NCBI RefSeq assembly: GCF_000002075.1
Contig: NW_004797351.1
Location: 1,263,199 to 1,327,198, forward strand
DNA length: 64,000 nucleotides
Direction: 5' to 3'
Origin: Aplysia californica
Taxonomy: Eukaryota
Shown: in pieces, positions 15,154 through 62,200 of the stretch
Position numbering within the stretch: the first letter of the stretch is position 1
Layout of the letters: every line of letters starts with the position of its first letter
Notes under the pieces: generated by a model
The model's input: the letters and a program-made list of their open reading frames with translations, nothing else
Databases searched by the model: none
Told to the model about the DNA's origin: nothing
Program-made: the position numbers and the translations under genes

Positions 15154-15919
15154 ATGGCGGGGAACGTCGACACAGACAAGTATTATGTTGAAAGTATCCT
15201 TTCCAATCTCTATGATGAAATTAATATTCTATGGACATGAAATATAAGTTAATTATTGCTATAAATGTACATTTATTCCGTTTTGTGTCTTGCATGCAAA
15301 CCAAATATTCATAATTCTATTCTAGATTCTAGATCTAGATATCTAGATCTAGTAGATCTAGATCTAGAGATCTAGATTCTAGATCTAATCATGACTGATT
15401 GGATGTGTTGACAAATCAATTTAATGAGTATGAGCCTTATGAGGGACAGCACGAATGACTTGGATTATGATGAATTCAGAATGGTACAAAGAGTAGACCT
15501 ACCGTGCGATAAATGTGTTTGTTTTTCAGTACTCTGGAGGACCATTAGTGGCATGCTGTCACTGGATTTTCAAAGTTTTCTTTTATGGAAAATAGTCGAG
15601 TCATAGAGTTTGATTAATACGTGCGTCATCTTTCGCTGTGGAGATACGTACTGTGGACTTTTAAGCTTTTGCACATGTCTTCAGTGTGAGTGACTATTAT
15701 TCAGAATCGGCTCTTTGGGTTTAGGCAATATTTTTTGTTTAGTAATTTTAAATGGTCTATAAATTGTTACTGCTCCATCAAATTTCCAGTACATTTAATT
15801 CAAAGAACTCTTTGTGCAAATGCACTTTAATTGACTAGGGTATGTTATAATTGTTAAATACCGAGATTGACTGACAACACAGACAAAGCCTGGGCGAAAG
15901 AGAGAGAGACGGAGAGAGA

Positions 15920-15988
<69 letters not shown>

Positions 15989-18118
15989 GGGGGGGGGGGT
16001 GCGGAATTATAGATGGACAGGTGAAGAGGATTGATTAGCTAGCTAGGTTTTCCACTTCTTTAAGTTGTTTGTTTGTACAGTACATGTATTTTTGGACTGG
16101 GTCATTGGTAATCCAAACTATTGTTTGTCGTTGTGAACAGAGTTATTCCACCATGAATGTAAGTTGATCCTTTGAGTTGTATAGTATAATAAATTTATAT
16201 ACAGCTGCTATTTAAATTAAGTTGACACTTTCAAATATGAAGAGGTTCATTTTATTACTTGAATTGTATTTCATTTCATTTGTGGAATAGATATTGCTTT
16301 GATTCCTTAACATTAAACTCACAGAGGAGGAGATTGCTGTAGACTCAGATGATGAGTTCGTTTATGAGGAGGTCCCAGTTGATGATGATCCAGTTCCTCC
16401 AGGTGAAATCAACTTTAACCTAAACCGTGTTTTAAAAAAAATCCATAGAATCTCTCCATTGTCTCATTTGTTTCAGCATTCACTTTTTAGTGTGATTATA
16501 GTTAGGCCTATCAGTCCATAGCAGCCCATAGAAGCTTACATAATACAGTGAAAGAAATGTACACAAAAGGCACTACCACTGACAATTTTACAAACAAGTT
16601 GTATAAGTTGTTCTAGAAACAAGTATTGAAATATTCAGAATTGGAAAAATACCTTTTTATTCACCTATCACCTACGTATTGTTCCACAATTATGATTGAC
16701 AAAGGATATTTGCAGGGTACTTACTATAGAAAGTTAGCTTCACGAGGAGCTGCACCTCGTATACGTAACAGGTTGGACAGTGGTCATTTTGAGATTTAAT
16801 TAACACTGGTTCAAATTACCAGTCTTCACATATGGCAGAGTAACACACGTCATAGGTTTTACTGAAAGATCAATATGCAGAACTCAAAAGGATTGTTTTG
16901 AGATGCAATGGGTCTTACATAAAGGGTGAACAAATAGCATCTGAGGGTGTACTGTACAGTATAATAGTATCTGCCTTTATGAGCCATGATCGATAAAGGC
17001 AAACATAACTATGAGCATATACCCAGTGGGCAATGGTCTTCACACTTCATAATTTCTGAAACAAAATATCTTTGAAGCATATACTGCCAATTCTTGTTAC
17101 ATTTTGTAACCTTGCAGCTTATAAATGACCAAATCTGCCATTAAAAAAAAATCATTAATGGGCATAACGTCTTTTTCATTGCTTTCCATTTTAACACAGA
17201 GTTAGAGGAAGATCTAGATGCTGCCGTCAGGACTCTGAGGGAAGCAAATGAAGATGCTGATGCGAGGGTAAGTATGCTACATTTCAATTAACTTTTATGT
17301 TATCGATTGAATTTGTGCAAATTGCTCTGAAATAGAAAAAAGAAGGATTAAAAGACAGGATGATAAATGAGAGGTACACATTCTGTTGAAAAACTGTTAG
17401 AAAATGGAAATGAATTACTTAAAAAAAACATAGAAACAAATCTTGGAATGTGAGAGATGAGGGGGACAGACGTGGAAGTATCCACTTTAACTTACTTGCA
17501 CCACTTCCCATTTATTTACGGGACCGATTGATATCTCTGGTGCTTTCGGGTCAAGCCACAGGAAGACATGAGCCAGTAGTTGACCCTCTTATTTTGTTTT
17601 ATGGCAAGCTTGGTGAAGTTATACAAGACACTTCTTGAGCTATTTCGAACTAAGGGAGTCATCACCAAATCGCAATTAATAGAAGCTCTGTGAACAGTAG
17701 CAAATGTCATGGTCTTTTAAGAGTGGAGATAGCGTCTAAAAGACATAAATAGAACATGCCTAAATCCTTCAAATGGTCTGACAGTGAACTAGAAGGCTAT
17801 AATTCTCACAATGTCCCACAAAACATACCAGAAGCTGAGTCTATGGGTTGAGGCTGTATTTAAGACAATGAAAGTTGAAGTCGGGGTTGGGTGAAAGTAG
17901 GAATTAGAATAGCTTTTTCTTCTACCAAGTCTAGTTCGAGTGACAGTAAACATAATATAAATCTAGTAGTTCTAGTTGTGGGAACAGTTGCAGTAAATCT
18001 ATTACTCACAGATGTAACAATACACATAGGGAGAAATGGACAGAGTATCTCAGTGATGATATCAGACACAGAGCTAAAGCAACGGCCTAGGATTATGTCA
18101 GGCTCAAGTGAGTTAGTA

Positions 18119-18198
<80 letters not shown>

Positions 18199-21100
18199 AT
18201 AGGGGAAAGGGAAGCTTTTAGTATACTGGACACATTTTTTAACCCTGTCGTAATTGTTAATTTCAGCTTCAGAGGGAGCCTCCCCCAAAGCCAGCTGTGG
18301 TTCAGAAGCCAGAAGTTGTTGACGACTTTGTTCGCAATTTCCTGATTCATATGGGCTTGGGACGTACTCTTGACTGTTTCCAAACGGAATGGTAAGTAAG
18401 AATCAGTACATCGTGACGGTAACAATGATGAAGTCGCGCATAGCAATTTTTTCTCAAAAGTTACTTGTACTCTAGTAAGCCTTGAACAAAGATGACCTGT
18501 TCTAAAAAGTAAAATATAGCAACGTTCTCCTTCTTTGTACTTTAAGTGTTTGTTTTGATTCATCAGTAGACTTTGTGATGAGATAGGTTGTTAGTCTTTT
18601 GTAAAGTTTTCTTGAAATGAATACTGAAAACCATGTTCAGAAAGAAAGTATAAAAACATATAAATGCTGCCAGATGTCTTTGGGTTTTTTTTTAAAGAAG
18701 AGCCTGATGTGAATGGAATGATGGCATTTTCAGTCATTCCACTGACAAGGTATTTTCAGCAGTTGAACAAAAATAAATTATTGCTATCAGTCGACAGATA
18801 GCTTTCTATGCTTTTTGATGGTTATAGCATCTTTTATGCTGTTCACCTTCCCCTCTTTTTCTTTTTCCGTCATTGACCAGGTATGAACTACAGGAAAAAG
18901 GTTTACTGAAATACAATGAAATTGGAACTGTCCCAGATGTGTACACTCGTAACCAGGAAATGGAGAATGAAATTGAGTTCTTGCGGAAGGAAGCAAGCAA
19001 ATACAAAAATGNNNNNNNNNNNNNNNNNNNNNNNNNNNNNNNNNNNNNNNNNNNNNNNNNNNNNNNNNNNNNNNNNNNNNNNNNNNNNNNNNNNNNNNNN
19101 NNNNNNNNNNNNNNNNNNNNNNNNNNNNNNNNNNNNNNNNNNNNNNNNNNNNNNNNNNNNNNNNNNNNNNNNNNNNNNNNNNNNNNNNNNNNNNNNNNNN
19201 NNNNNNNNNNNNNNNNNNNTAGAATGAAATTATGTTTGCTTGTGATTGAGTGTGTATGTGTGTTTGTGTGAGTCTTTCTGTTACATGGCCTAATGATATC
19301 TGGTTTTGAGTCTTTCAATGTCTTTTTTTTTCAGAGGAATAACTATTAGTTGATGGTGGAGGTGTTTTTACCCCATAGTATCAATAGATTGTTACAGTCA
19401 TGAGTAAAAAAAATCAAATCTGCACTTAATACAATCAAAATCAAAGGTACATTGAAAGAAGAAAAAGACATGTTTTTCTTCAGCATTTTAAAAAAGAAAT
19501 CTACAGACCCACCTACATATCATCTTTTCTTGTGTTATATGAGTTTTCAAATTTACAGTGTCAAAATTATATCCTGTGACATCCACTATGCCATACGAGA
19601 TAAAAAGCCCTTTTTATAGCCCCTAAATATATATATTTCAAAACAAATCCTTATTTATGAGAATTGCTTATCAGGCATATATGTTGTTCTTGTCTTTCAT
19701 TCATGGCAGGAAAGCAAAGGAAACTTATGTGAAGTTGAGGAAAGAGAGAGATTTCCACCGCATGCATCACAAGCGTGTTGTGCAAGAGAAGAACAAACTT
19801 ATTGACGACATCAAGAGGTAAGGTTTAGCTCAACTTCATTTGAAGTACGTTAAATACTTACTCTACATGTATTTGTCACCTTTTATATAGCTGATCATTT
19901 GGTGGCTGTCATGTGCTTAACTTCATAACCTGAGCAATTGAAATCTTTAGCTGTCGTGACATGCTTTGAGAAGAAAATGATGTATAAAGTCAAAACCAGA
20001 AATTGTTTTAACTCAACGTTTTCTTGAAAAACAATAGATTGTGGCAAATAATACTTATAAAATTTCAAAGAAAGACTGTACCTACTAAAAAAATTCCCAA
20101 TATATCATCTCATAAATTAAAATGAAACAACCCAAGAAAAAAAAAGTCTCAATATGTTATGTATAATTTAGTACCACTGTGGATGGATGGGTGGCGAAAG
20201 TGTCAGGAGTGGAGGGCGGGAGACTTTTCTAAATCATCATGATCCTGTGATCTGATAACTGGTCAGTCATCAAAATTTTCATTAATGAACGTTCTGATAC
20301 AAATTGATCCTCTGACCTAATCAGTTAATCCTGTAAATTTTCATTAACCCACGCTCTGGAACATCATGATCTTGTGACTTTGTAAGTCAGTCAATCATGA
20401 GCTCATTTATTCTTTCAAAGGTTGAAGCATCATGGTTCTGAGGCCTAATAAATTGTCTGTGGTTAGGCACTCAGACTTGCAACTGTAAGGTTGTGGGTTC
20501 AAATCTTGTTAGGGGCCTGATGTTGTGTCTTTGGGAAAGGCACTTAACATGAATTTTTGTCATTTTACCCTAACGGGAATGGGTACTGATCAGCTATAGA
20601 CGGCAAAAGATCTTGTCAGTTTACTAGTGTTTTAGCATGTGTAATCCGCAGCTTGTACTGTATGCTTCTCAAGAAACCTAGAATGTTTCTGAGTGTTCTT
20701 GTAGGGTCTGCTGCGGTAATAATAGTTGTTAAGTGCATAGAGCATGCTGTAGAGTGTAAATATGTGCTATGTGAATGCGATCATCATATTATTATAAATC
20801 AGTTGGTCATCAAATCTCTATTCCATTCACAGGCTGAAGCGTCACTACTCTCAGTACGCTCCCAACATGGAGGCTCTCAAAGCTCGCTATGAAGCTGCCA
20901 TGAAGGAGAAGATGTTGGCCAACTTGGAGCGTGACAGGGCAGTCGGCCAAGTGAATGGCCTTCAGAGCACCATCAAGAGCATGGAAGGATTCCACGGTAA
21001 TCACATACTGTTATGATTAGAGCTCCTTTTTCCAGTAGGACCTTTGACTATTTATCTATTTTTGACTCCCTCAATGGTGTAGGGATATTTTAAGTGGCAT

Positions 21101-22553
21101 GACTTTTTAATCAGACTTCTATTTCTGATAAGACTTAGCCAAGTAAGCAGACTGTTTGAAAACTCTAGATGTAGCTTAAATTCAGGGAACACCCACAATT
21201 GAAATTATAACCATAATTGTCCAATCCACAGGTAGTGCTAATAAGGAGAATAAGACAGAGGCGAAAGGCCCCACTCAGACAGCTCTTCTCTTGGAGAGAC
21301 AGAAGAAAGCCCTGGGCTCAGACGGAGATGTGGCAGACTTGCCATCCAACTTCAAGCGTTACCCGAATGTGAGTTTTTGTAGATTGCTGTTAACCTTTTT
21401 CGCACCTATGGAGTTACTGATTGATGCACTGAATATGGATCATTAGACTGATTGCAGTGGTGCGAAGGTAAATGGTGAAGTGGATAAAATCTGTCAATGA
21501 ATAGTGATGCTGAAAAGAATTTTTACAGGAAAGCAAGATTTGAAATCTGTTTGAATGTTAATGTTTAAAAGTGACCCTAACAAGTGTGGAAAAGTTTCTG
21601 TAAATCAATTCACATCAGTATAATCGCTTGAATGAAATGAATTTGTATAGGTTTTACACTCTTAGCAACAATGTAAGGTTATTTAAGAGGCAGGACTTCC
21701 GAATTTAATGTCCATCTCAAATAGGACTGAGCAAAATGAGAAAATTTGTGTAAAGTACTATTCCCAAGGACACAACATGGGACGGAGCTGAGTCTCGAAC
21801 CCCTGAACCTGCATTCTCACAATTATGACATTAGTAGCCTTGTCATTTGCCCTCCAATATGCCACTGTATAATTCCTTTGTCTCAAGTGTCTTGGGTTTA
21901 AGGTTGGAGGAAAGGTAGATAAACCATTAGTGTGATATGTCTGGGCTCTTGTAGCCCAAAGCTCACTGCATTTCTCTTTCAGTTATACATTCAGTCAGAT
22001 CTACGCTCATAGTATCTACCAGCCCAATACTTCACCTTCTCAAAGTGTCACTGCCTTTTGCCAGTGCATGAAAGTATGAGTCATTGCATAAGGCTACACC
22101 CTCNNNNNNNNNNNNNNNNNNNNNNNNNNNNNNNNNNNNNNNNNNNNNNNNNNNNNNNNNNNNNNNNNNNNNNNNNNNNNNNNNNNNNNNNNNNNNNNNN
22201 NNNNNNNNNNNNNNNNNNNNNNNNNNNNNNNNNNNNNNNNNNNNNNNNNNNNNNNNNNNNNANNNNNNNNNNNNNNNNNNNNNNNNNNNNNNNNNNNNNN
22301 NNNNNNNNNNNNNNNNNNNNNNNNNNNNNNNNNNNNNNNNNNNNNNNNNNNNNNNNNNNNNNNNNNNNNNNNNNNNNNNNNNNNNNNNNNNNNNNNNNNN
22401 NNNNNNNNNNNNNNNNNNNNNNNNNNNNNNNNNNNNNNNNNNNNNNNNNNNNNNNNNNNNNNNNNNNNNNNNNNNNNNNNNNNNNNNNNNNNNNNNNNNN
22501 NNNNNNNNNNNNNNNNNNNNNNNNNNNNNNNNNNNNNNNNNNNNNNNNNNNNN

Positions 22554-22601
<48 letters not shown>

Positions 22602-25600
22602 TCAGGCATGCTTTCCTCCCCTCCTAACTCCTCTCATAACTTTCCTTACCCTATTCTCATAATTTTTCTTCCCCTCCTCTTGCAATTTCCCTTCAAATCC
22701 TGGTGTAATTTTCCTTCTTGTCTTCTCTGGGACGTACAGGATTCTGAATTCCCTGTGGACAATGGGGTCAACCCGTACCTGAACCAGGTCAAGGCTCCAC
22801 CAGGTCATGTGACCCGCACTGGAGGATTTCGGCTGTCCAACACCTTCAGTGCCCACTCACACCCAATCAGTGGGTAAGTATATCGGTTTACTCATTTAAG
22901 ATAAGAGAGAGATCAGATAATATTCTATTTCCTCAGGGGGAAATTTTTCTTGGCTGTACAGGACCGTAAAAGCACATGCTGGTATACATGGAAATTACAT
23001 TTTATATAACTCTAATTAAAATTCAATATGAAAAGAAAAGTAAACCTGACATATAATGTATTGTATATATCACATCAGAAGCATCATTCTATCACATGCA
23101 GGAATTTATAGCTAAGCTTTTAGAGTTATATTGATACATGTCATTTTTCGAAACTGCAATACACATTAATGTTTATTCCTTGTGTACTGTGTGCACTGGA
23201 GGTTTTTTTTTCATATTATGTTTAAAAAAACTGTTTATTTGACATGAGTTCCGGAGAAATTATTTTCATTATGAAAGCTAGATCTAACAGCAGTGGATGG
23301 ATTCAATTTTGAATATAAAGGTTATTGCATTGCACAAACTGAAAGTGTTTCAACTCCTTTACACATTCTTCAGTTTGAAAGTAAATATGTAGCACTTCGT
23401 AAGACTAAGATCTATTAAAAATTTTTACAAAGGAAAATTTGACAAATAAGTACTTTTTTTTTAAAGCTAGCTTTTGAAAAGCTGATAGAATTGATGAAAC
23501 TTGTACATTCACAATTTTCCACTTTTTCTGCTTTTAGAAATAGAGGTCGCTCTATTTTGTTAATTGTTAGATAAATATGTCGTTTTTTTCTCTAATTTTG
23601 AATATATTACTTTGCTCTCTCTCAACAAGAGACAAAACCCTGTCATTTCAAAGTCACGGAATGTTCACTGCTCATGAAATTCCAATCAGTGGGTGTGTAC
23701 AAAGCTGTACTTTTCATTGGACACTATTTTGTTCTTTCTTTTAATCCATGTCTTTATTTAAACATATTTCTGAGTGTAAAACATGGAGATTTCATACTTA
23801 AAAATAATGAAGGGACAGGTTAATACCCATTACTCTTTGATTGAATTGGAAAAGTTAAAAGCCCTTTCAGAAACATTTTCTGACTGAAATGACTTGGAGT
23901 TTTTTACTTGCTCTATGTTCTGACAAAGAACGTCTAACCTGCCTTCTTCATTACTTTTTCCTTTTCAAGTTGGGTATCAATTGTTATTGCAAAATCTTTG
24001 GGTGTTGTCAGTATGCATTTTTTGTCGCTCAGTTCCATTGTATAAAGGATACTACTTTCGTAGTTTAACACTTTGCCTCCTCAGTTCGCCGATTGGTGAT
24101 GTTTACCACCCAGTTTCTTTGGATTTTCTCCAAAATATGATGGCAAAGTGTTAAGCTTTGGTATAATTATTACAATCCAATAAACATTAAAATGTTCCAG
24201 CTTTCTGAAGTTTTTAATAAGGCAAAAATATTTTTGCTTTTTTTTTCTGAATAAGATGTAATTTCTGGTTTACTTCATGAATGCTTTCTAAATCTTTACA
24301 ATAAGTATGCTGCTGTAAGTGTAAATTGTAAAAATATCTCTATGAGAATGCCCTCTGAAGTCAAGAAAAGTCAATGTCGGATACTCCATTGGTTGAGCTA
24401 AATATTATTGAAAACATGATTCATTAATCATAAAGGAATATTTTTTGTTATGGCCTAATTTTTTTGGGTTTATTTTTGGACTTGATTTTGTTTGGGTCTT
24501 GCGAAGAAAGAAAAAGGAGGTTCAAATACTTTAGAATTAACCGGTAACACAAACTTAATGCCCTCATGAAAATTGTCCTCTCGAAAGATCGTTGGTATCC
24601 TTTCATTATTCGTTTCTGGGTCTTTTTTTTTGGTCTCTCTTCAAAAATTTGAGAGTCAGATGGTCATTAGAGAAATCTGAAAATGAATTTTGAATTTGAA
24701 GCCAAAAAATAGAGATTGTGGCTGTAATTAAGCACATAGCACATTTTCTAATTGGATGGATCACACATAAGTTTAACCCTCTCCGTATGCCCTGGGATCA
24801 TTCTTCACATTTTAGAATACTTCTAGTACGAAGATCTCTTTGAAACTTTCAGTATTTCTCAAAAAATCATTTAAGAAGTTGTGCTTTGTCATGTGTGCTT
24901 TGTTATGTCAAAGACAAATATCTACAATGTTTTTACATTTATTTCTTTCCGTAGCATCTTTATGAGCTTTAACAGTTTTTTCTTTTCGGAGATACCCGTG
25001 CAAACAAGTTTTTTATCAAACACTATTACATGTGGAGTACTATGCCATCTAAGTAAACTCTTTTTTCCTTTTTCCTACTGGTAGGTCCTACTACTTTTCT
25101 TTTCGTCTGTCATTTTTGTCTGTCATTCTGACTCTTTCCCATGCCCATAATAACCATTGCTGTGTCAGTATGCTTTTCTTCACTCTAAAAATTTCTTCCT
25201 CCACTAGTGTTGCCCTTCACCCTCGTAAGCAGATACTAGCAACTTCTAGCGATGACCATACTTGGAAAATGTGGGCGGTGCCTAGTGGGGACATCATCAT
25301 GACAGGAGAGGGGCACTCTGATTGGGTCTCTGACTGTGACTTCCACCCAGCGTAAGTTTTTCAGTGTTAAATTTATTTAAACCAAACCTGAAAGTTGAAA
25401 TGTGTAAAATGCATAACTTTTGCAGAATAGGTAAGTGTAATTGTAGTCAAAGTATAAGGAGAAAATGAGATGAAACAACTTAGGGATCAGGTTAGGTGAC
25501 TATTGGTCTGTTATGAATACTTAATTGNNNNNNNNNNNNNNNNNNNNNNNNNNNNNNNNNNNNNNNNNNNNNNNNNNNNNNNNNNNNNNNNNNNNNNNNN

Positions 25601-26212
25601 NNNNNNNNNNNNNNNNNNNNNNNNNNNNNNNNNNNNNNNNNNNNNNNNNNNNNNNNNNNNNNNNNNNNTTCTCATTCTACTGATAAGTCACTCTACTCTG
25701 GAAGCTATTATATCTAACATTTNNNNNNNNNNNNNNNNNNNNNNNNNNNNNNNNNNNNNNNNNNNNNNNNNNNNNNNNNNNNNNNNNNNNNNNNNNNNNN
25801 NNNNNNNNNNNNNNNNNNNNNNNNNNNNNNNNNNNNNNNNNNNNNNNNNNNNNNNNNNNNNNNNNNNNNNNNNNNNNNNNAGGAGGGAAGGACTATTGAG
25901 TAACATTTGTTCTGTAAATATGAATAAGACAATTTTTTTTTTGGTCTTTGTCTTCTAAAATGCTCAATGTTTCACCATGAAGGGTCTTTGAGAGTTACAT
26001 AGAATAAAAGGAAAGGGAACGCTGTACAAATTATAGGGGGAGGGGACTCATAGAGGAAGCAAAACATCATCATCATCGTCATCATCATCATCAGCATAAG
26101 TATCTTCAGCATCATCATCATTATAGACAGCAGAGAATAAAAAAAGGTTGAGACTTGGTAAAATTTCTAGAAATATTTTATAATCATCATCATCATTATC
26201 ATAATCACATCC

Positions 26213-26278
<66 letters not shown>

Positions 26279-29035
26279 ACTCAAACCCACCTTTCTTTCG
26301 TTCCTTCCCAATCATCACAGTGGGTCAAGTCTAGCTACCACGAGTGGTGATTCGACGGTGAAGATCTGGGACTTCTCAAAGGCTGCCTGCGTCCACACTT
26401 TCACAGATCACACAGCTGCAGGTATAAAATTATAAAAATAGTAATAGCAATTTTCTTGTGCCCCCATTGACACATAGACACAATTCTGATCAGAGACGGA
26501 TTCCTTCCATCTGGTCTGTCAGGGCCATCTAGGTTGATAGAGCTCTCACAGAAACACACGGAAATACTCTGTAACAAAAAAAAAAAACCCTCATTACTCA
26601 GGAATTAAACTTGCAAACGTTTTTTTATTTTTGAATAAAAATTCAGGTGAACCTGCTTTAAGATAATAAACTGTACTTAAGACGTGTTCCCACTTGCCCC
26701 CTCACATTTTTTCCAAGGGGTGACTTAGTGCGACTCACTGCCAATAAAAGCTGCATCATTGCTATCATAATTGTCTTTTTTTAAAAATTAGTGACATATT
26801 GCGTAATATCTGACTTTGATATATATACATGCTATTGTCTGAACTTCATAGGTTTGTATTGTTCTCACTATTGCAACAAACATTTTTAACTGGTAATAAT
26901 CAAAAGTGGTATTTTATTTATTAATTATTTTATTTTATTTTATCTTTTAAAAATGTATTATTATTATTTTTTGTCAAGTGTGGAGTTGTTCCTGGCATAC
27001 TTGTGGAGACTTCCTAGCCACAAGCTCAATGGACAACACAGCCAAAGTATGGGACATCAACAGGTAAACTGTCTATGCGACTGCGGGATATTAACTCGTA
27101 AGCTATTTATGTGACTTTCTTGACCCTATGAGAGATTAACAGGTACACTGTCATTGTGAATATGAGAGATTAACAGGTACAATATCATTGTGAATATGAG
27201 GGATTAACAGGTGCACTATCATTGTTAATATGGGAGATTAAAAAGGAAACTTATGAATAGATGTTTGATAAGAAAGAAGAAGCAAACCACACTAGAGCAC
27301 CCACCAACCACCCAATGATCCTTCTTCAATATGCATGCAAGCACTTGGTAAATGATGCATAGACAACAGCCCATTACAATGCATAAACACACAAAAAATG
27401 TAAGCTCTCTTGAGAACTAGAAATGATAATATATTTTTGTGTTGAAATTCAATTTTCTTTTACTTGACTTCATAAGACTGTGCATAAAACAAATTGAATG
27501 TCTTATCTTTTCTTCAGTTTGAGGTGTAGATTCACCCTCCGAGGCCATGCAGACTCGGTCAACACAATTGAGTTCCTTCCCTTTAGCAACACTTTGCTCT
27601 CCAGCTCTGCAGACAAAACTATGTCTCTTTGGGATGCACGCACAGTGAGTTTTTTGACTCGGTATAACACAACACATACAATGTTTACTAGATCCATCCT
27701 CAGGAAAAAAAATTAATTTGTTGAAAATGTATAAATGTTTTGCGCTGTCACAGACACCATTTAGATCATTTAGAAGGTGGTTTGCTCTGACCTGGCCTGT
27801 CAGAGCGAGTGACAAAATGCCCCAACAAGCAAATGGAGATACTCAATGAAACATAATGTACCCATACAGGAATCAAACTCACATTTCTGCATTTGACAGC
27901 AAAGAGCAGAGAGTCGAACCTTTTTCCGACAGATGTCTGTATGGTGTTCTTATACTTCTGAGGAACACCGCACCATCCGTTTTCATTTTTTATGTCTTTC
28001 TTCTCTTTCCCTTTTTGTGCCCTCCCATTCTCCTTTTTAAATAAACATCTCACAAGCTCGCTCTCATGTTATTGATATCTCCTTGTAGTACTGGAGATGC
28101 ATATTTATTCCACTCTCTGGTGAGCTTTATGCCATTTTAAAGGTGAATACAAGGAATCAAATGCTTTTTTAGATTTGTTATACCCGGTACATAAGTGGTT
28201 TGTCTTCGTAGTATGTCAATGTCAGCACTCTCTGTGATTCCTTAAATTGGATCACCATACTCACAGTAAGCTATAAAGTATCGGTACTTTTTGAAAGTCA
28301 CATACTTTGTGAACCAATTTACTCTCCTGCAAGAAAGACACTAAGAATGGTGCTCTTGTAATCCTGTTTTACCAGTACTTCTTTTGAATACAGGTTTTCT
28401 TGATGTTTGGTGCTTGATCCTGCTTTCGAAAAATTCTAATAACATGCAATCTTCCAGGCGAGTTTATGTGTACCATCAACTTGGTTGGTATCATTGTAGA
28501 TTATCACTTGATTTACCCTTGTTAGAATCCCCAACTAGGCACTCATTAGCTTGTGTTGTGTGGGAAGTTTTCAAGGATATCCGTCAACTTGGTACTGCCC
28601 TATCAGAGATGGATATTGAAAATGGAGGTTTCACCTCTTACATAGAACAAGGTAGTGTTGAAAAGGATATTAAACCCAAGCCATAACAGTCTGGTTTCTA
28701 ATGACATGAAGTGTGTTCAGAATTTTGTTTGTTTGTTTGAAGTACTACACCAGATATCTAAACAGTATCATACCCTGGGTTTCTGTGGTTATTTTTAAGT
28801 CTTTTATTTTACATTTTATAGATTACCCTGAAAATTGATCAAAATCAGGTTCTCAACAATTTCTCAAAAGTATGACATAATCTTATATTGTTGTCTGCAC
28901 GAAGAATGGGTCTCAAAATTATATATTTGTCTGTTTTTCAGGGCTTATGCGCTCAAACATTCTATGGACACTTGCATTCTGTGAACCATGCCACTTTCAA
29001 TCTCAGGGTGAGTTTGTTGCTTGATAATAATCCAG

Positions 29036-29090
<55 letters not shown>

Positions 29091-31164
29091 AATAATGATA
29101 TATACATTTATAAGTTCTTTTTTTGTATTGTCATACGTTTTGTGAATTTCAAACATTTGTTGCTCATATTAGTTGTTTTGGAAAGGAAGACGGACTTGAG
29201 AAGGATGGGAGAGGAGGTACTTACATATCATAATTATTCAACTACAGACATCAAGGAACATCTTACAATATTGCTTAATTTTGTTTCATTATTTCCTTAC
29301 TTGTCTTTAATGGAAAATTTAAAGGATGATGAGTCTATCATGATTCAAAAGTCAAGCAGGATTCTGATTTGGGTGATCTCCTCTGTTTTAATTTTCTAAA
29401 AACTTAAATAGCTCAAGTGCTTATGGAATGATGGTCACGAAGAGGAAAAAGTATTAAATTGTATTTTATTATTATATTGTACAGTATATTATAATATTAT
29501 GTAAAATCATGGTATATTTTATCATGTAACAGGATTTTATATGATAAGACGCGATGCGATTTGATTCATAATATTTCCTTTCCATATACAGTACTTCTTT
29601 CCTTCTCTGTTTTGTTCTCCTTCTCCCCTTTTACAAAGCAGCCCCCAGTGAGTGACACTTTTTCTTCTCTCCCCACCAGGGTGACACTATCGCCTCCTGT
29701 GACTCTTATGGTGTCGTGAAGCTCTGGGATGTCCGTGTTGTTGCGCCCATGGCAAGCTTTGAGGTCGGACCCCACCCTGCCAACAAGTTGGCCTTTGACC
29801 CCTCAGGAGGTGTTCTGGCCATTGCCAGCAACGATAGCACCATTAAAATGTATGAGATCGGCACTGGTCAGGTAAGGAACAAAAAAGTTTTCTGAAAAAA
29901 CAGCTCTTCTTCCTCTCACGAAAATGTGTTTTACAATGGTATGCTCATTAATAATTATCAATAGGCATAAATCATACTGAAACAGGATATCTAAATAATG
30001 CGCGCCTATAGTTTGAGTGAATGAGATTCAAAAGTATACCTCATGTATTACACGCGTGATATATAATATACAACCAGGATGGGGCCAAACAAAGGGGAAG
30101 TAAGGCTGAGCAGGTGAATAAAAATCTGGGTTTTACAACTTATCTTGACCTCTTGCATAGATTACCTTCTACTACTGTAGTCTCTCATATTAACTCCTTA
30201 TCTCTGGTAAACCACTGACAGCAGCTTGCGGTCGGAACCGCTGTACCAGTGAGCTGCTGGTAGTGGCTCGGACAAATTCCTTTCCGACGACGTCAGCGGT
30301 AAATTACTTTTCAGCAATTGCTGAAAACTGGTCTCTTTTACAGGGAGTTCATTCATTAGGTGATGAACTATCAAAATATGTTCACTTGTTTGGTTTTAAT
30401 TACCAATTTAGTGACATATATATGTCAATTTTAGATTTCATACCAAAAGAGGTTTACTTCCCTCAGAGATAAAGAGTTAAATAAATCTCAGTGCAGCAAC
30501 CAATGTTTCTTACTTAAAGCCAAAACACTATATTTAATGCTTGGCATATTTAGCACCTCATGTCACAAATTGATCCCGTATTACACCCGCGACCTACAAA
30601 AATGGGCCGATTTTGGAGGCAAAAATATAGTATGTATGGAAAATCATGATATATGTGAGTATATATAAGGTAGGCCTTTCTTGTGTTCTTGAGGACAGCA
30701 AATGTTTCGAGTTAGGGTTAACATATTTTGACAAGGAACAATGTGATGTGCTTCCCTCCCGCACAAGTAGCCACATTTGATTTTCCCTGACCGTAAAACC
30801 ACCCATAATTGAGAAGCAGCTTGACAACATAGTGGCAGTTGGCTGTATAGCCTTCTGGTGTACCTTTTTTTGGAACGACAAGTAGCCTCCCACTACACTA
30901 AAAAACAACTACCTAAGCAAAATCTAGGATACAGTTCAACTATCAACCGCCAACGTTTAGCCAAGGAAAAATAGAATGCCTGGTAAGGATGATTGTTGAA
31001 AAAAAGAAGAAGTTATTAATGCATATTTTGCTTTCTTGTTTTTCTTGTTACAGATTCAGTCTCTGGTTGGTCATGAAGACGCTGTCCAGTGTTTGTGCTT
31101 TGACCGCAGTGGAGAGTTTATGGTGTCAGGGGGAAGCGACTCCACTGTTCGCATCTGGTCCTAG
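15154..31164 (+). CDS. SPAG16: Sperm-associated antigen 16 / PF20 (axonemal central-pair WD40 protein), 16 coding exons, ~600 aa
   Basis: Exons: 15154-15193, 16325-16402, 17200-17267, 18267-18391, 18881-~19011 (end in gap), 19710-19817, 20833-20996, 21232-21368, 22740-22873, 25208-25351, 26321-26421, 26979-27063, 27518-27644, 28942-29007, 29680-29871, 31054-31164 (TAG). The protein has an acidic N-terminus (YYVEKEEIAVDSDDEFVYEEVP), PEVVDDFVRNFLIHMGLGRTLDCFQTEW, a coiled coil (KLRKERDFHRMHHKRVVQEKN) and WD40 repeats (GHSDWVSDCDFHP, GHADSVNTIEFLPFSNTLLSSSADKTMSLWD, GSDSTVRIWS*). These match known SPAG16 from memory. Confidence 0.95.
15321..15386. repeat. (TAGATC)n self-complementary hexamer repeat; second tract at 52888-52986
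   Basis: Runs of TCTAGATCTAGA. Confidence 0.85.
20440..20790 (+). mobile_element. tRNA-derived SINE with a CORE-like domain (SPAG16 intron 6)
   Basis: A tRNA-like head with B-box GGGTTCAAATC is followed by GTTGTGTCTTTGGGAAAGGCACTTAAC (CORE-like). The boundaries are approximate. Confidence 0.6.
27048..27246 (+). repeat. 34-bp minisatellite overlapping the SPAG16 exon 12 splice donor
   Basis: Unit TATGAGAGATTAACAGGTACACTGTCATTGTGAA occurs at 27127, 27161, 27195 and 27229 (partial). Diverged copies lie at 27048 (spanning the exon end) and 27082. Confidence 0.8.
30194..30476. mobile_element. piggyBac-like MITE, 283 bp, TTAA TSD
   Basis: TTAA|CTCCTTATCTCTG ... CAGAGATAAAGAG|TTAA, a 13-bp TIR with 1 mismatch. 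Confidence 0.75.
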
Positions 31165-34659: not shown

Positions 34660-36270
34660 GGTAGCGAATAGGCCTTCCAGAAATTCTTCCAGCCAGAAAT
34701 GACCTCCCAATAGATACCGAACCGCCTTCAAGAGAGGAAATTGCAGCCGCTATAAAAACACTGAAGTCCCACAAGGCAGCTGGTCCCGACCATATGCCAC
34801 CCGAAGCACTTAAGGCAGATAAAGATACGTTAGTGGAAATTCTCTATGCTCTATTTGAAAAGGTTTGGCAAAAAGAGGAAATACTATCAGACTGGAAGGA
34901 CGGCCACCTAATCAAGCTGCCAAAGAAGGGAGACCCCAGCAATTGTAACAACTACAGAGGCATCACACTCCTGTCCATACATGAGAAAGTCTTTAACAGG
35001 ATACTCCTGGAGAGAATCAAGCTGGCAACAGACGAGAAGCTCCGAGGTAACCAGGCAGGATTTCGCAAAAACCGATCATGTGTGGACCAGATCGCTACTG
35101 TACGCATCATTGTTGAGCAATCACTTTAATGGAATTCACCACTTGTGGTCAACTTCGTTGATTATGAAAAGGCGTTTGACAGCGTGGACAGGGAAACGTT
35201 GGAAACTCATGCACAATTTGGAATACCTGACAAAATCGTCAAGCTTGTGAAGGCCACCTATGAGGGAACAAACTGCCAAATCTTCCACGAAGGACAACTC
35301 TCAGAATCATTCCAAGTACAGACAAGAGTGCGACAAGGATGCTTGCTCTCACATTTTCTCTTCATACTGGCAATTGACTGGGTCATGAAAGAAACCACCA
35401 GAGGCAAGCGTAATGGAATACAGTGGATCCCTTGGCACCAGCTGGACGACTTGGACTTCGCTGATGACCTTGCACTGCTCTCTCACGCACATGCTTAGAT
35501 GCAAGAAAAGACCAAGGAACTCAACAGCCTATCAAGGAGTGTTGCCGGCGTATACATCCAGGCAAGTCAAAAGTAGTGAAGCTAGGACACGTTAAAGCCC
35601 TACTGCGACAGTGGAAGAAACTCCCCTGGAAGAAGTGGACTCCTTTACCTACCTTGGAAGTGTCATCGATGGTACAGGTGGAACCGAGGCTGACGTTAAA
35701 GCAAGAACCGCTTAGGCAAGGTCAGCATTCAATCAATTATCAAAAGTCTGGAAAGCAAGTAACATCTCACTACGCATCAAGATTCGACCCTTTAACTCCA
35801 ACGTCAAGTCTGTGCTCCTCTACGGCTGCGAAACTTGATTGGAAGACAACAAAGACAGTACTGAATAATGTTCAGACTTTCATCAACAGATGTATGAGGA
35901 GTATTCCAAGAGTTAAGAGGCAGGATAGAATAAGAAATGAAGAGCTGTGGGAAAGGACAGGACAAAAGGATATAGAAGTAGAACTAGGATTAAGAAAGTG
36001 GCAATGGATGGAACACACCTTAAGAAAGCCCAGCGGAAACATCACAAGACAATCACTGCAGTGGAACCCACAAGGAACTCGAGGCAGGGGTAGGCCACGG
36101 GAAACATGGAGAAGATGCGTGGAAAGAGACATGAAAGAGATTAAGTTCACTTGGAACGAGCTAGGAAGGATGATGGCTCTGGACAGAGATAAATGGAAGG
36201 AGCTTGTATGTGGCCTATACCCTGCCAGGGGTGAAAGGCATTGATGATGATGAAGAAGATGATGATGATA
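34660..36270 (+). mobile_element. RTE-clade LINE, 5'-truncated, frameshifted RT, (GAT)n tail
   Basis: It encodes KLPKKGDPSNCNNYRGITLLS, NQAGFRKNRSCVDQI, FVDYEKAFDSVDR, VRQGCLLS, LDFADDLALL and GRGRPRETWRR, with several stops and frameshifts. It ends in TGATGATGATGAAGAAGATGATGATG, a short-repeat tail typical of RTE. Confidence 0.93.
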
Positions 36271-59200: not shown

Positions 59201-62200
59201 TTGCGGCTCTCCATCCAGGTCCGCGAGTCACATTTAGGGAAAGTGTTAAATCCTTACTATTTTAAAGAAAGAGTAAAAGTTGTTATGATGATCAAGTTCA
59301 AGGATCAAGAAAACTTAAAGCACCAGCAAAAGTTTGTTATGGAATCATGTTGTTGTGTAATTTTTTATTGAGATTGTGAAGAGTAAATAAAGCCTGAAAA
59401 AAAAAATCATGATGTTTCTAGAGTATTGCTACATGGGTACCTGCTGCAAAGCAAGCAATCATTTTAATGTGTCATTACTGTGTTTATTTGTCAGGTTTGG
59501 GGGATACAAACTACAGTTCTTTCTGCCGTTGTGCCAAAGACCTGGACAATCGTCTTCTGGCGCTGGGTGCAAGACAGTTCTTCGCGACAGGCTTTGCAGA
59601 TGATGGTGTTGGGTGAGATTTGATTTTTTTCCCCATTCTATCATGTGTCAGCTTTGGCTGGATAGTATTTTTTAAAAATCAGCTCATCAGTTGGAAGAAA
59701 TTTCTTCTCACACATTTAAAACCTAGTTAACCAAAGTGAATTGTGTGAATTAGTAGCAATACTTAGGACCATGAGTAAAAAAATGGGCAAAGAAAGGTTC
59801 CCATGATTTGGCTATGATACGGCACACTTACACAAATGACAACCATGTATACTGTACTAACGCAATATTGGTAAAATTTACCGATCGCTCTGCCTTTCAT
59901 AGAATTTTTACATCATCCTTTGCAACAACACGCAATGAAGTAGTAGTAAGATTTGCACTGGGACGTGAAAACAACTACCTTGTACTGAATATGTCTAAAG
60001 CTTAAAAATTTCTAAATTTCAGACTTTAAAAATGTGTTAAGAATTGACGAAGAGCAGTTTGTATTTGTGGGAATGTATGAGTATCTTAGATTCTATGTGG
60101 ATGATTAATTAAATTTGCATCATGTGCCGAACGTTTGTAAAAAAAACGAAACCCTTTTATATTCAAATTTTCTTCGTTTGAAATTCATAGTACCATTAAA
60201 ATTTTTTTTTACGTCTCCGTAGTATAAAATGTAATTTCTTTGGGCATCACTTGTTAGTGTGCTACAGTAACAACCGTGGACAAAAAGAAAATAAACATCA
60301 TTAGGAAAGCAGGAAAAATAGTAAATTGTAAACTTTTGATTTTGATGCCATTTATTCTGATGCATGTTTTCATAGAATTTATAAGTCAATGGTGAATGAT
60401 AGTGAACACCCCTTCGGGATGCATATATATATATATGCATAATATGCAAGACCTGCTGAAAGCAATAAAATCCTCCAACCTGCTTCAAAAACAGAGATAC
60501 AAGAACTCCTTTGTCCCCTTATCTGTCTGAAAAAGAACAATATACTAAGACTGTGATCCTTTTGTGTGTGTTTCTGCTTTTATTTAATGTGTTTACCAGA
60601 TGTGTATGGAAGAGAAGGAGAGAAGACTGAGTGTATATGTTTGTGTATGTGTGTGAGAGAGAGAAAAAGAGAGACCGTTTCTTTACACTTGTATGAGTAG
60701 GTTGTGCATTCATGTACTTTATCATTGTGCATGAATGTGATGGGTGCATTTTGGTGTTGATGATCTGGAATGTCCAGCCCAAATTTCCCAATGGATCAAT
60801 TATTTTATCTTATATGACCTGCCTTTTCCAAATTTTAACTGTGGAATGGAGTATTTTTAAGTTACTGTCAGAACAAATGTAAATATCTCTTTTGTCAATA
60901 ATTTATTCTAATGTAAGCCTGATATTGCTGTTTTCCAGTTTTAAAAAATGTTACCCTTTGGGGTTACTTTATTTGACAAATTTAGAAGATTGTGTTTTTA
61001 AAAATGTTTTTATATAAAATACTGTGTTTTGACAGGCTTGAGATTGTTGCTGAGCCTTGGCTTGAGGGTATTTACCCTGCATTACAAAAGTTTCTGGGAG
61101 TGACTGAGGGCACTGGTGGCTCCCTCACAGAGAAGGTGGAGGCACCCGCACAATCCTCACCAGCAAGTGTGGACATATCGGAGGCGCGGGATTCAACAAA
61201 ACAAGACAATGTGGAGGTGGTGTTAACGAACTCGGGTGTGAGAGAATCTCAAATAGAATCTCAGAGTGATACAATTGAAGCTTTTAAATCTGTGACTTGT
61301 GATGAAATTTCTGTTAAGGAAACAAGGGCTTCGGAGGGTAATGGTGATGGCTCAGTGCAAGTAAAAAATTCTCAAGACTGCTCAGTCAATGGTTGTGATG
61401 CTGAACTTACGGTTGAGGTTCAGTCTAAAATCTTGGGCCAGAAAACTTTTTTTGACAGCCAGCGAAAGTGTGAGACACCATGCCAGCTTGTTGATTTCGC
61501 TGCAGCTAGTGATGCCCCCTGTGCCTTGGTCAGCTCTGACTCAGAGCTAGCGGAAAAATCCCTGACGGTACCAGTTTTACCACCCGCGTATCTTGAAGCA
61601 TCGTTCTCTGGAGATCCTGTGAATGTGAGTTTTATGATTTTTTTTCCCTGTTTTTTTTCTTAGTTGTTTAAGTTGCTTTTTTGTAGATGCTTTGCTGTCT
61701 GCAAGAGATATTTCTTCTGTATTTGGTTTGGAAATTGTCTTCAGAGAGAAATTGTAGTAATATAATCCTGTGGGTCTGACACGCATGATTGAATAGTCAC
61801 TTATGAGGTTCAGAATGTTAAGTAGTTTGTCATAGTTTTTCAAACAGAAAGAAACCACAAATTTAAGTACAGTCGAACCTGTGTATTTATAAGCTCAGAG
61901 CGGATATTTGTAAGGGACAGAGTACAGAGCACTAAATAAATGCAGCAATCCAATCTGTTTTTATTTTTATTATTATTATTATCATTATTGTTCATTATTA
62001 TCATTACTGTTATTGCTACTTTCTACCAGCTCCGTGAGCTGAGTTTCCAGAATGACTACAAGCTGCCCAGTGCAGTCTCTCCCGTGATCAAAGTGCAGGT
62101 CTCAGCTGCCCGAGTACTCACCCACCCTCAGGCAGTGAAGAAAACACTTCTGCTCTCTCTCAATCTTCAGGTAGGAAACATTCTCCCCAGTTTTTAAAAA

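Follow-up and report, generated by a model that had tools for sequence, protein, structure and literature searches.

A probable ancient cassette exon, derived from a partial copy of exon 9, in the SPAG16 gene of Aplysia californica

Introduction

PF20/SPAG16 sets up the central pair, and without this protein the whole apparatus is missing (PMC12297659). The propeller of the protein is located on the C2 seam together with FAP178/SPATA4 and touches CFAP47 (10.1101/2022.01.23.477438, PMC12297659, 10.64898/2026.01.30.702858). In WD40 propellers, the d-a loops form the top face, and the strand preceding strand 1a closes the last blade (PMC4387560). The central-apparatus structures of PF20/SPAG16 (PDB 9ijj, 7n61 and 7som) correspond to the protein and fold considered here (TM 0.95 for 7som_aa); judging from the alignments, blade 1 is without an insert in the solved forms.

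Two described systems are close to the exon reported below. In the mouse, the gene contains exon 10a, an untranslated first exon with its own promoter that precedes exon 11 (PMC3105110). At a more general level, tandem exon duplication is usually discussed together with mutually exclusive splicing (PMC9013439, PMC8373072).

The closest relative is a database entry. In the snail Biomphalaria glabrata, the isoforms X1 (XP_013086434.2, 628 aa) and X2 (XP_013086443.2, 607 aa) are separated by a single gap of 21 aa and do not differ otherwise. X1 is a predicted (XP_) protein model; predicted isoforms of the RefSeq type rest on transcript alignments. No paper on this isoform was found in the open-access literature when SPAG16 was combined with Biomphalaria or Aplysia.

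Here, a 63-nt segment of intron 9 of the Aplysia californica gene is described. It is a partial copy of the end of exon 9 and has likely been an optional exon for at least ~200 My; when included, it would extend the protein by a loop of 21 residues where the WD40 propeller begins. The cassette is already on record as the Biomphalaria database prediction; what is new is the unannotated Aplysia exon.

Results

The window, i.e., the whole stretch of 64,000 nt analyzed, contains the SPAG16/PF20 coding region at 15154..31164 on the forward strand (+). Sixteen constitutive coding exons were placed by tBLASTn and boundary fitting, the exon 5 donor being hidden under N; they give XP_012935784.1, a protein of 605 aa without the cassette. 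Exon 9 (22740..22873, +; 134 nt, phase 0 to 2) is present in the contig of run X8 and in the short-form model, is 100% identical to the A. californica SPAG16 XP_012935784.1 and is truly the ninth coding exon of P0001. It encodes the linker, the strand d that closes the ring, the WD repeat 1 His and, in blade 1, the first half of strand a. Exon 10 (25208..25351, +) supplies the rest of WD repeat 1; its translation starts with VALHPRK behind a single leading base. Intron 9 spans 2334 nt. Three short fragments of multi-copy elements are found in it, at about 22930-23020, 24080-24175 and 24800-24872, with a heavy coverage by poly(A) reads derived from other copies.

Several other features are visible in the window. 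The exons of a PAP2-family gene (2626-6497, -; PAP2 E 4.6e-4, under the cut-off), which we take to be glucose-6-phosphatase-like, lie head-to-head with SPAG16. A flavodoxin-domain exon is located at 59422-59613 (+; E 4.2e-7). A non-LTR retroelement at 45924-47993 (-), with 48639-49367 (-), has an open frame of 690 aa (RVT_1 E 3e-33), and the frames preceding this ORF show a CCHC-like knuckle with no Pfam hit. Broken RT fragments occur at 10953-11504 (-) and 34912-35592 (+).

The cassette exon (23630..23692, +) is 63 nt long with phase 2/2. The signals listed for it by the initial annotation are all in place: a branch-like TCTAAT at 23591, which would be the branch point, a pyrimidine tract and an AAG at 23627-29 compose its 3' splice signals (23591..23629, +), and the exon ends in GG before GTGTGT. 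The AAG is the first AG downstream of TCTAAT. After one leading base, the exon is translated as DKTLSFQSHGMFTAHEIPISG.

This peptide aligns without gaps to the final 21 codons of exon 9 with 9 of 21 residues identical, as had been claimed, and with 31 of 63 nt identical. The BLOSUM62 score of this match is 42; exon 9 itself aside, the runner-up of the 6920 GT-anchored sites scanned over the two strands of the window scores 18. None of the 1500 simulated introns reached 42, the maximum being 25. Three of the nine identical residues (T, A and H) differ at a synonymous position, and the variable positions are changed at two to three bases: the divergence of the two copies is codon-shaped. When exon 9 was decayed at random to 31/63 nt, at least 9 of 21 residues were kept in 0.5% of 50,000 trials. 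Behind the cassette, the donor GTGTGT belongs to 19 nt of intron (23693..23711, +), 12 of which are identical to the start of the intron that follows exon 9; a copy that took in the donor would give this. At the sequence level, the homology of the cassette to its neighbor is far beyond chance, and the cassette is classified as a tandem copy of part of exon 9, its 3' end.

The cassette is single-copy in its own genome (one match). A transposon origin was considered and rejected: the segment is single-copy and shows no RNA pile-up, unlike the three repeats of the same intron. Comparison of the other SPAG16 exons with their own flanking introns gave no convincing copy (best 34 vs. 43). A 23-nt segment of intron 1 (16222-16244, +), bounded by AG and GT, reads DTFKYEE and resembles FVYEE of exon 2 (FKYEE in Biomphalaria). 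Its score, 30, does not exceed the noise seen in other introns (up to 34), and 23 nt cannot be divided by three; this resemblance is probably due to chance.

Scored with a small matrix, built from only 14 introns, the cassette acceptor reaches 7.9, fifth of the 110 AG sites of intron 9, the 14 constitutive acceptors spanning -6.4 to 12.4. The donor scores 6.6, second of 125 GT sites and mid-range among the 14 constitutive donors. Both sites are thus of ordinary, usable strength. With a length that is a multiple of three, the same phase on both sides and no stop, the exon preserves the frame. Further upstream, a TAG at 23568-70 opens a 122-nt frame (23571-23692, +) that has the exon 9 phases (0 to 2) and contains a further ATG, at 23577.

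The 21-aa insert of Biomphalaria X1 (UniRef A0A9U8EH32 and A0A2C9KFY5) is located at the exon 9/10 junction, after a complete exon 9 and before exon 10. It shares with the Aplysia cassette the junction, the length and the motifs TLSFQSH and PI[S/T]G, the former being absent from exon 9. The middle eight to nine residues differ and the second His is lost in Biomphalaria, and the Aplysia orthologue is unannotated. In the 64 kb, the best match of the insert is the cassette, with a score of 46 vs. 32 for the next non-overlapping one (6906 GT-anchored windows). Even when the last six residues, which are exon-9-like, are removed, the score is still 38; among random intron-like peptides, one in 200,000 attained this value, and among 50,000 copies decayed from exon 9, none. 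These tail-less statistics argue that the two inserts are orthologous and go back to one ancestral exon, and not to independent duplications. Their one-codon shifts offset each other, so that each insert has 21 aa.

A protein search with exons 9-10 matched 207 proteins, 120 of which were listed. The junction length was measured in 172 proteins of at least 300 aa (listed matches and cluster members), one record of 54 aa being excluded. Among these matches, the insert is present in 2 of 172, both Biomphalaria X1 records, which are probably one annotation. In the other 170, the segment is near-constant, from 0 to -5 residues, except for one model at -19. The candidate peptide and its upstream frame, a short query and therefore a weak search, gave a single candidate, and no match at E<=10, in one protein search and no match at E<=0.001 in another.

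Aplysia and Biomphalaria both belong to the Euthyneura, Aplysia being outside the Panpulmonata. The split between Hygrophila and Stylommatophora is dated to about 199 Mya (159-228; PMC9392753). As this split falls inside the Panpulmonata, it provides a rough minimum age for the cassette. No look-alike was found in the four metagenome loci sharing intron 9 (L003, L004, L007 and L008; 281-452 nt), with best scores of 19-25; a further locus, L005, had no exon 9 hit and was left aside. In the multi-isoform records of scallops, oysters, a limpet, Babylonia and Gigantopelta, the isoforms of the seven pairs differ elsewhere in the protein. Judging from these comparisons, the cassette probably arose within gastropods. 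The annotations of Elysia, Bulinus, Candidula and Bradybaena are single models without the insert, which are uninformative on an optional exon. Other molluscs have small conserved optional SPAG16 segments of their own: two scallops have one of 8 aa (241-248) and oysters one of 11 aa (63-73); pairs with optional segments are P0033/P0148, P0149/P0150, P0158/P0157 and P0037/P0161.

Four of the 24 listed runs were covered by the RNA comparison. Run X8, presumed to be RNA, contains one SPAG16 contig of 2655 nt, a full transcript, in which exons 9 and 10 are joined at 22872/25207 by a GT..AG splice and the cassette is skipped: the depth is 60.8, and 0 at 23600-23695. Runs X21-X23 (raw poly(A)) do not cover the SPAG16 exons, with a depth of 0 on exons 9 and 10, and are uninformative. 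No Aplysia read or contig including the cassette was found in the one informative run, and Aplysia RefSeq holds a single SPAG16 form without it (a cluster of two). In Biomphalaria, the skipped and included forms are both on record, as the predicted proteins X2 and X1.

In the short-form model, strand d comprises residues 320-325 and strand a residues 331-336, which places the exon 9/10 junction midway along strand a of blade 1. The AlphaFold model of the long form keeps the strand 320-325, and the insert (335-351) has a pLDDT below 50, with 90-96 for the remaining blades; the register is biased, because 71 of the 72 alignment rows lack the insert. A profile of strand d and its His was built from 102 orthologous segments. 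In Aplysia, the exon 9 strand with its His scores 20.7 bits, and the two cassette registers 9.2 and 9.4. In Biomphalaria, the exon 9 strand scores 19.0. A His placed six residues ahead of the junction Gly gives the weak match of 9.4 bits in the Aplysia cassette and none in Biomphalaria, where the register at the insert end falls to -26.8 with the loss of this residue.

Discussion

Three options had been left by the initial annotation: a frame-preserving cassette, a swap exon and an alternative first exon. The cassette is the one supported, because X1 and X2 differ by one 21-residue insert after a whole exon 9. A swap exon would replace the 3' half of exon 9, from the internal donor CAG/GTCAT at 22803 to the acceptor at 23631 (GAG, 23630-31), or all of exon 9 via the TAG at 23568-70. 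These sites exist and both variants are in frame, but the sites are weak: the donor scores 3.2, below 13 of the 14 constitutive donors, the GAG scores 3.9 and has a G at -3, seen in 0 of 14 constitutive acceptors, and the TAG scores 0.7. Moreover, the extra 20 upstream codons do not resemble exon 9, and X1 retains exon 9 in full, which makes a swap extremely improbable. An alternative first exon, with the ATG at 23661 starting a WD40-only protein like mouse SPAG16S, is very improbable as well. The ATG is indeed in frame, the donor is good, and the mouse does make a WD-only isoform (PMC3105110). However, the start codon is not conserved, the Biomphalaria insert having no Met; the conserved TLSFQSH lies upstream of the ATG and would go untranslated; besides, the acceptor is strong, and the extra residues of the Biomphalaria form are internal to the protein. 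The mouse precedent also does not carry over to this position. Spag16S resembles the cassette form in that an additional exon, close to where the WD40 domain begins, gives the same gene a second isoform, but its product is a short nuclear protein, and the accessible part of the source does not state a paralogy of exon 10a to a coding exon (PMC3105110). The published primer of mouse exon 11, reverse-complemented, encodes DSEFPV, which is the start of Aplysia exon 9 and is found in the mouse chain too. The untranslated exon 10a is therefore located one intron upstream of the cassette position.

Even with the splicing of an in-frame cassette unchanged, the included segment could itself become the ring-closing strand, an alternative entry into the blade; the old strand would then turn into linker and lengthen the tether between coiled coil and propeller. 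TLSFQSH and GMFTAH do resemble the motif of strand d and its His, with both registers above zero bits, and FQSH is found at the same place in one orthologue (P0049). On the other hand, the exon 9 strand scores far higher at 20.7 bits, the His of the canonical register is lost in Biomphalaria, and AlphaFold, with the alignment bias mentioned, retains the strand of exon 9. This arrangement is considered unlikely, and the "alternative blade" put forward by the initial annotation is not favored: both copies are included in tandem, and the better strand stays with exon 9. The ancestral cassette could also be real but now silent, or nearly so, in Aplysia. Its skipping in the one informative run, its absence from Aplysia RefSeq and the lack of its peptide in the protein collections are what such a vestigial exon would give, but rare variants are dropped from contigs. 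The frame is open, the sites are intact, and TLSFQSH is kept at 7/7 positions over ~200 My or more, which is hard to obtain without continuing selection; a vestigial state is thus quite improbable.

The optional cassette also differs from the pairs to which tandem exon duplication usually leads. Like mutually exclusive duplicates (homologous substitutions), it is an adjacent paralogous exon with the same donor phase and a long conservation (PMC8373072, PMC9013439). Unlike them, it copies only the 3' half, with 63 nt and phase 2/2 vs. 134 nt and phase 0/2 for exon 9, and it is an insertion, both copies being found in one product, the predicted model Biomphalaria X1. By its phases, its length and this co-inclusion, the cassette is not a member of a mutually exclusive pair: it is an ordinary in-frame cassette that arose by duplication.

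The following scenario is proposed. In a euthyneuran ancestor, the 3' part of exon 9 and its donor would have been duplicated in tandem, an acceptor gained and the cassette retained. It would be spliced after exon 9, without replacing it, in some tissue or stage, the skipped form being the main one. In the included form, the ring-closing strand d and the His would still come from exon 9, and the [I/L]PI[S/T]G end of the cassette would rebuild the start of strand a. The net effect would be a d-a loop longer by 21 residues on the top face, carrying the conserved TLSFQSH. In the last and weakest step, this loop may give the propeller an additional contact at the C2 microtubule seam or prevent one there. 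From there, a broader reading, which we hold as doubtful, would be that euthyneurans tune the ciliary central pair: through an optional exon that arose by duplication, the face of the SPAG16 propeller that binds partners would bear a 21-residue loop with a fixed TLSFQSH, and one cell type (e.g., sperm vs. epithelial cilia) would thereby have a different C1-C2 bridge or an axoneme-excluded form, with the length held at half a WD repeat by offsetting indels.

Conclusions

On the reading favored here, the gene model of Aplysia SPAG16 is corrected, and an anonymous Biomphalaria isoform is explained by an old, selected exon that arose by half-duplication of the neighboring exon. The event belongs to a well-known class, of which this is a clean example: a tandem duplication leading to an insertion rather than to a mutually exclusive pair. 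Given the role of PF20/SPAG16 in the central pair and the near-constant length of the junction segment, a regulated insert in blade 1 would offer a testable handle on cell-type-specific cilia of molluscs.
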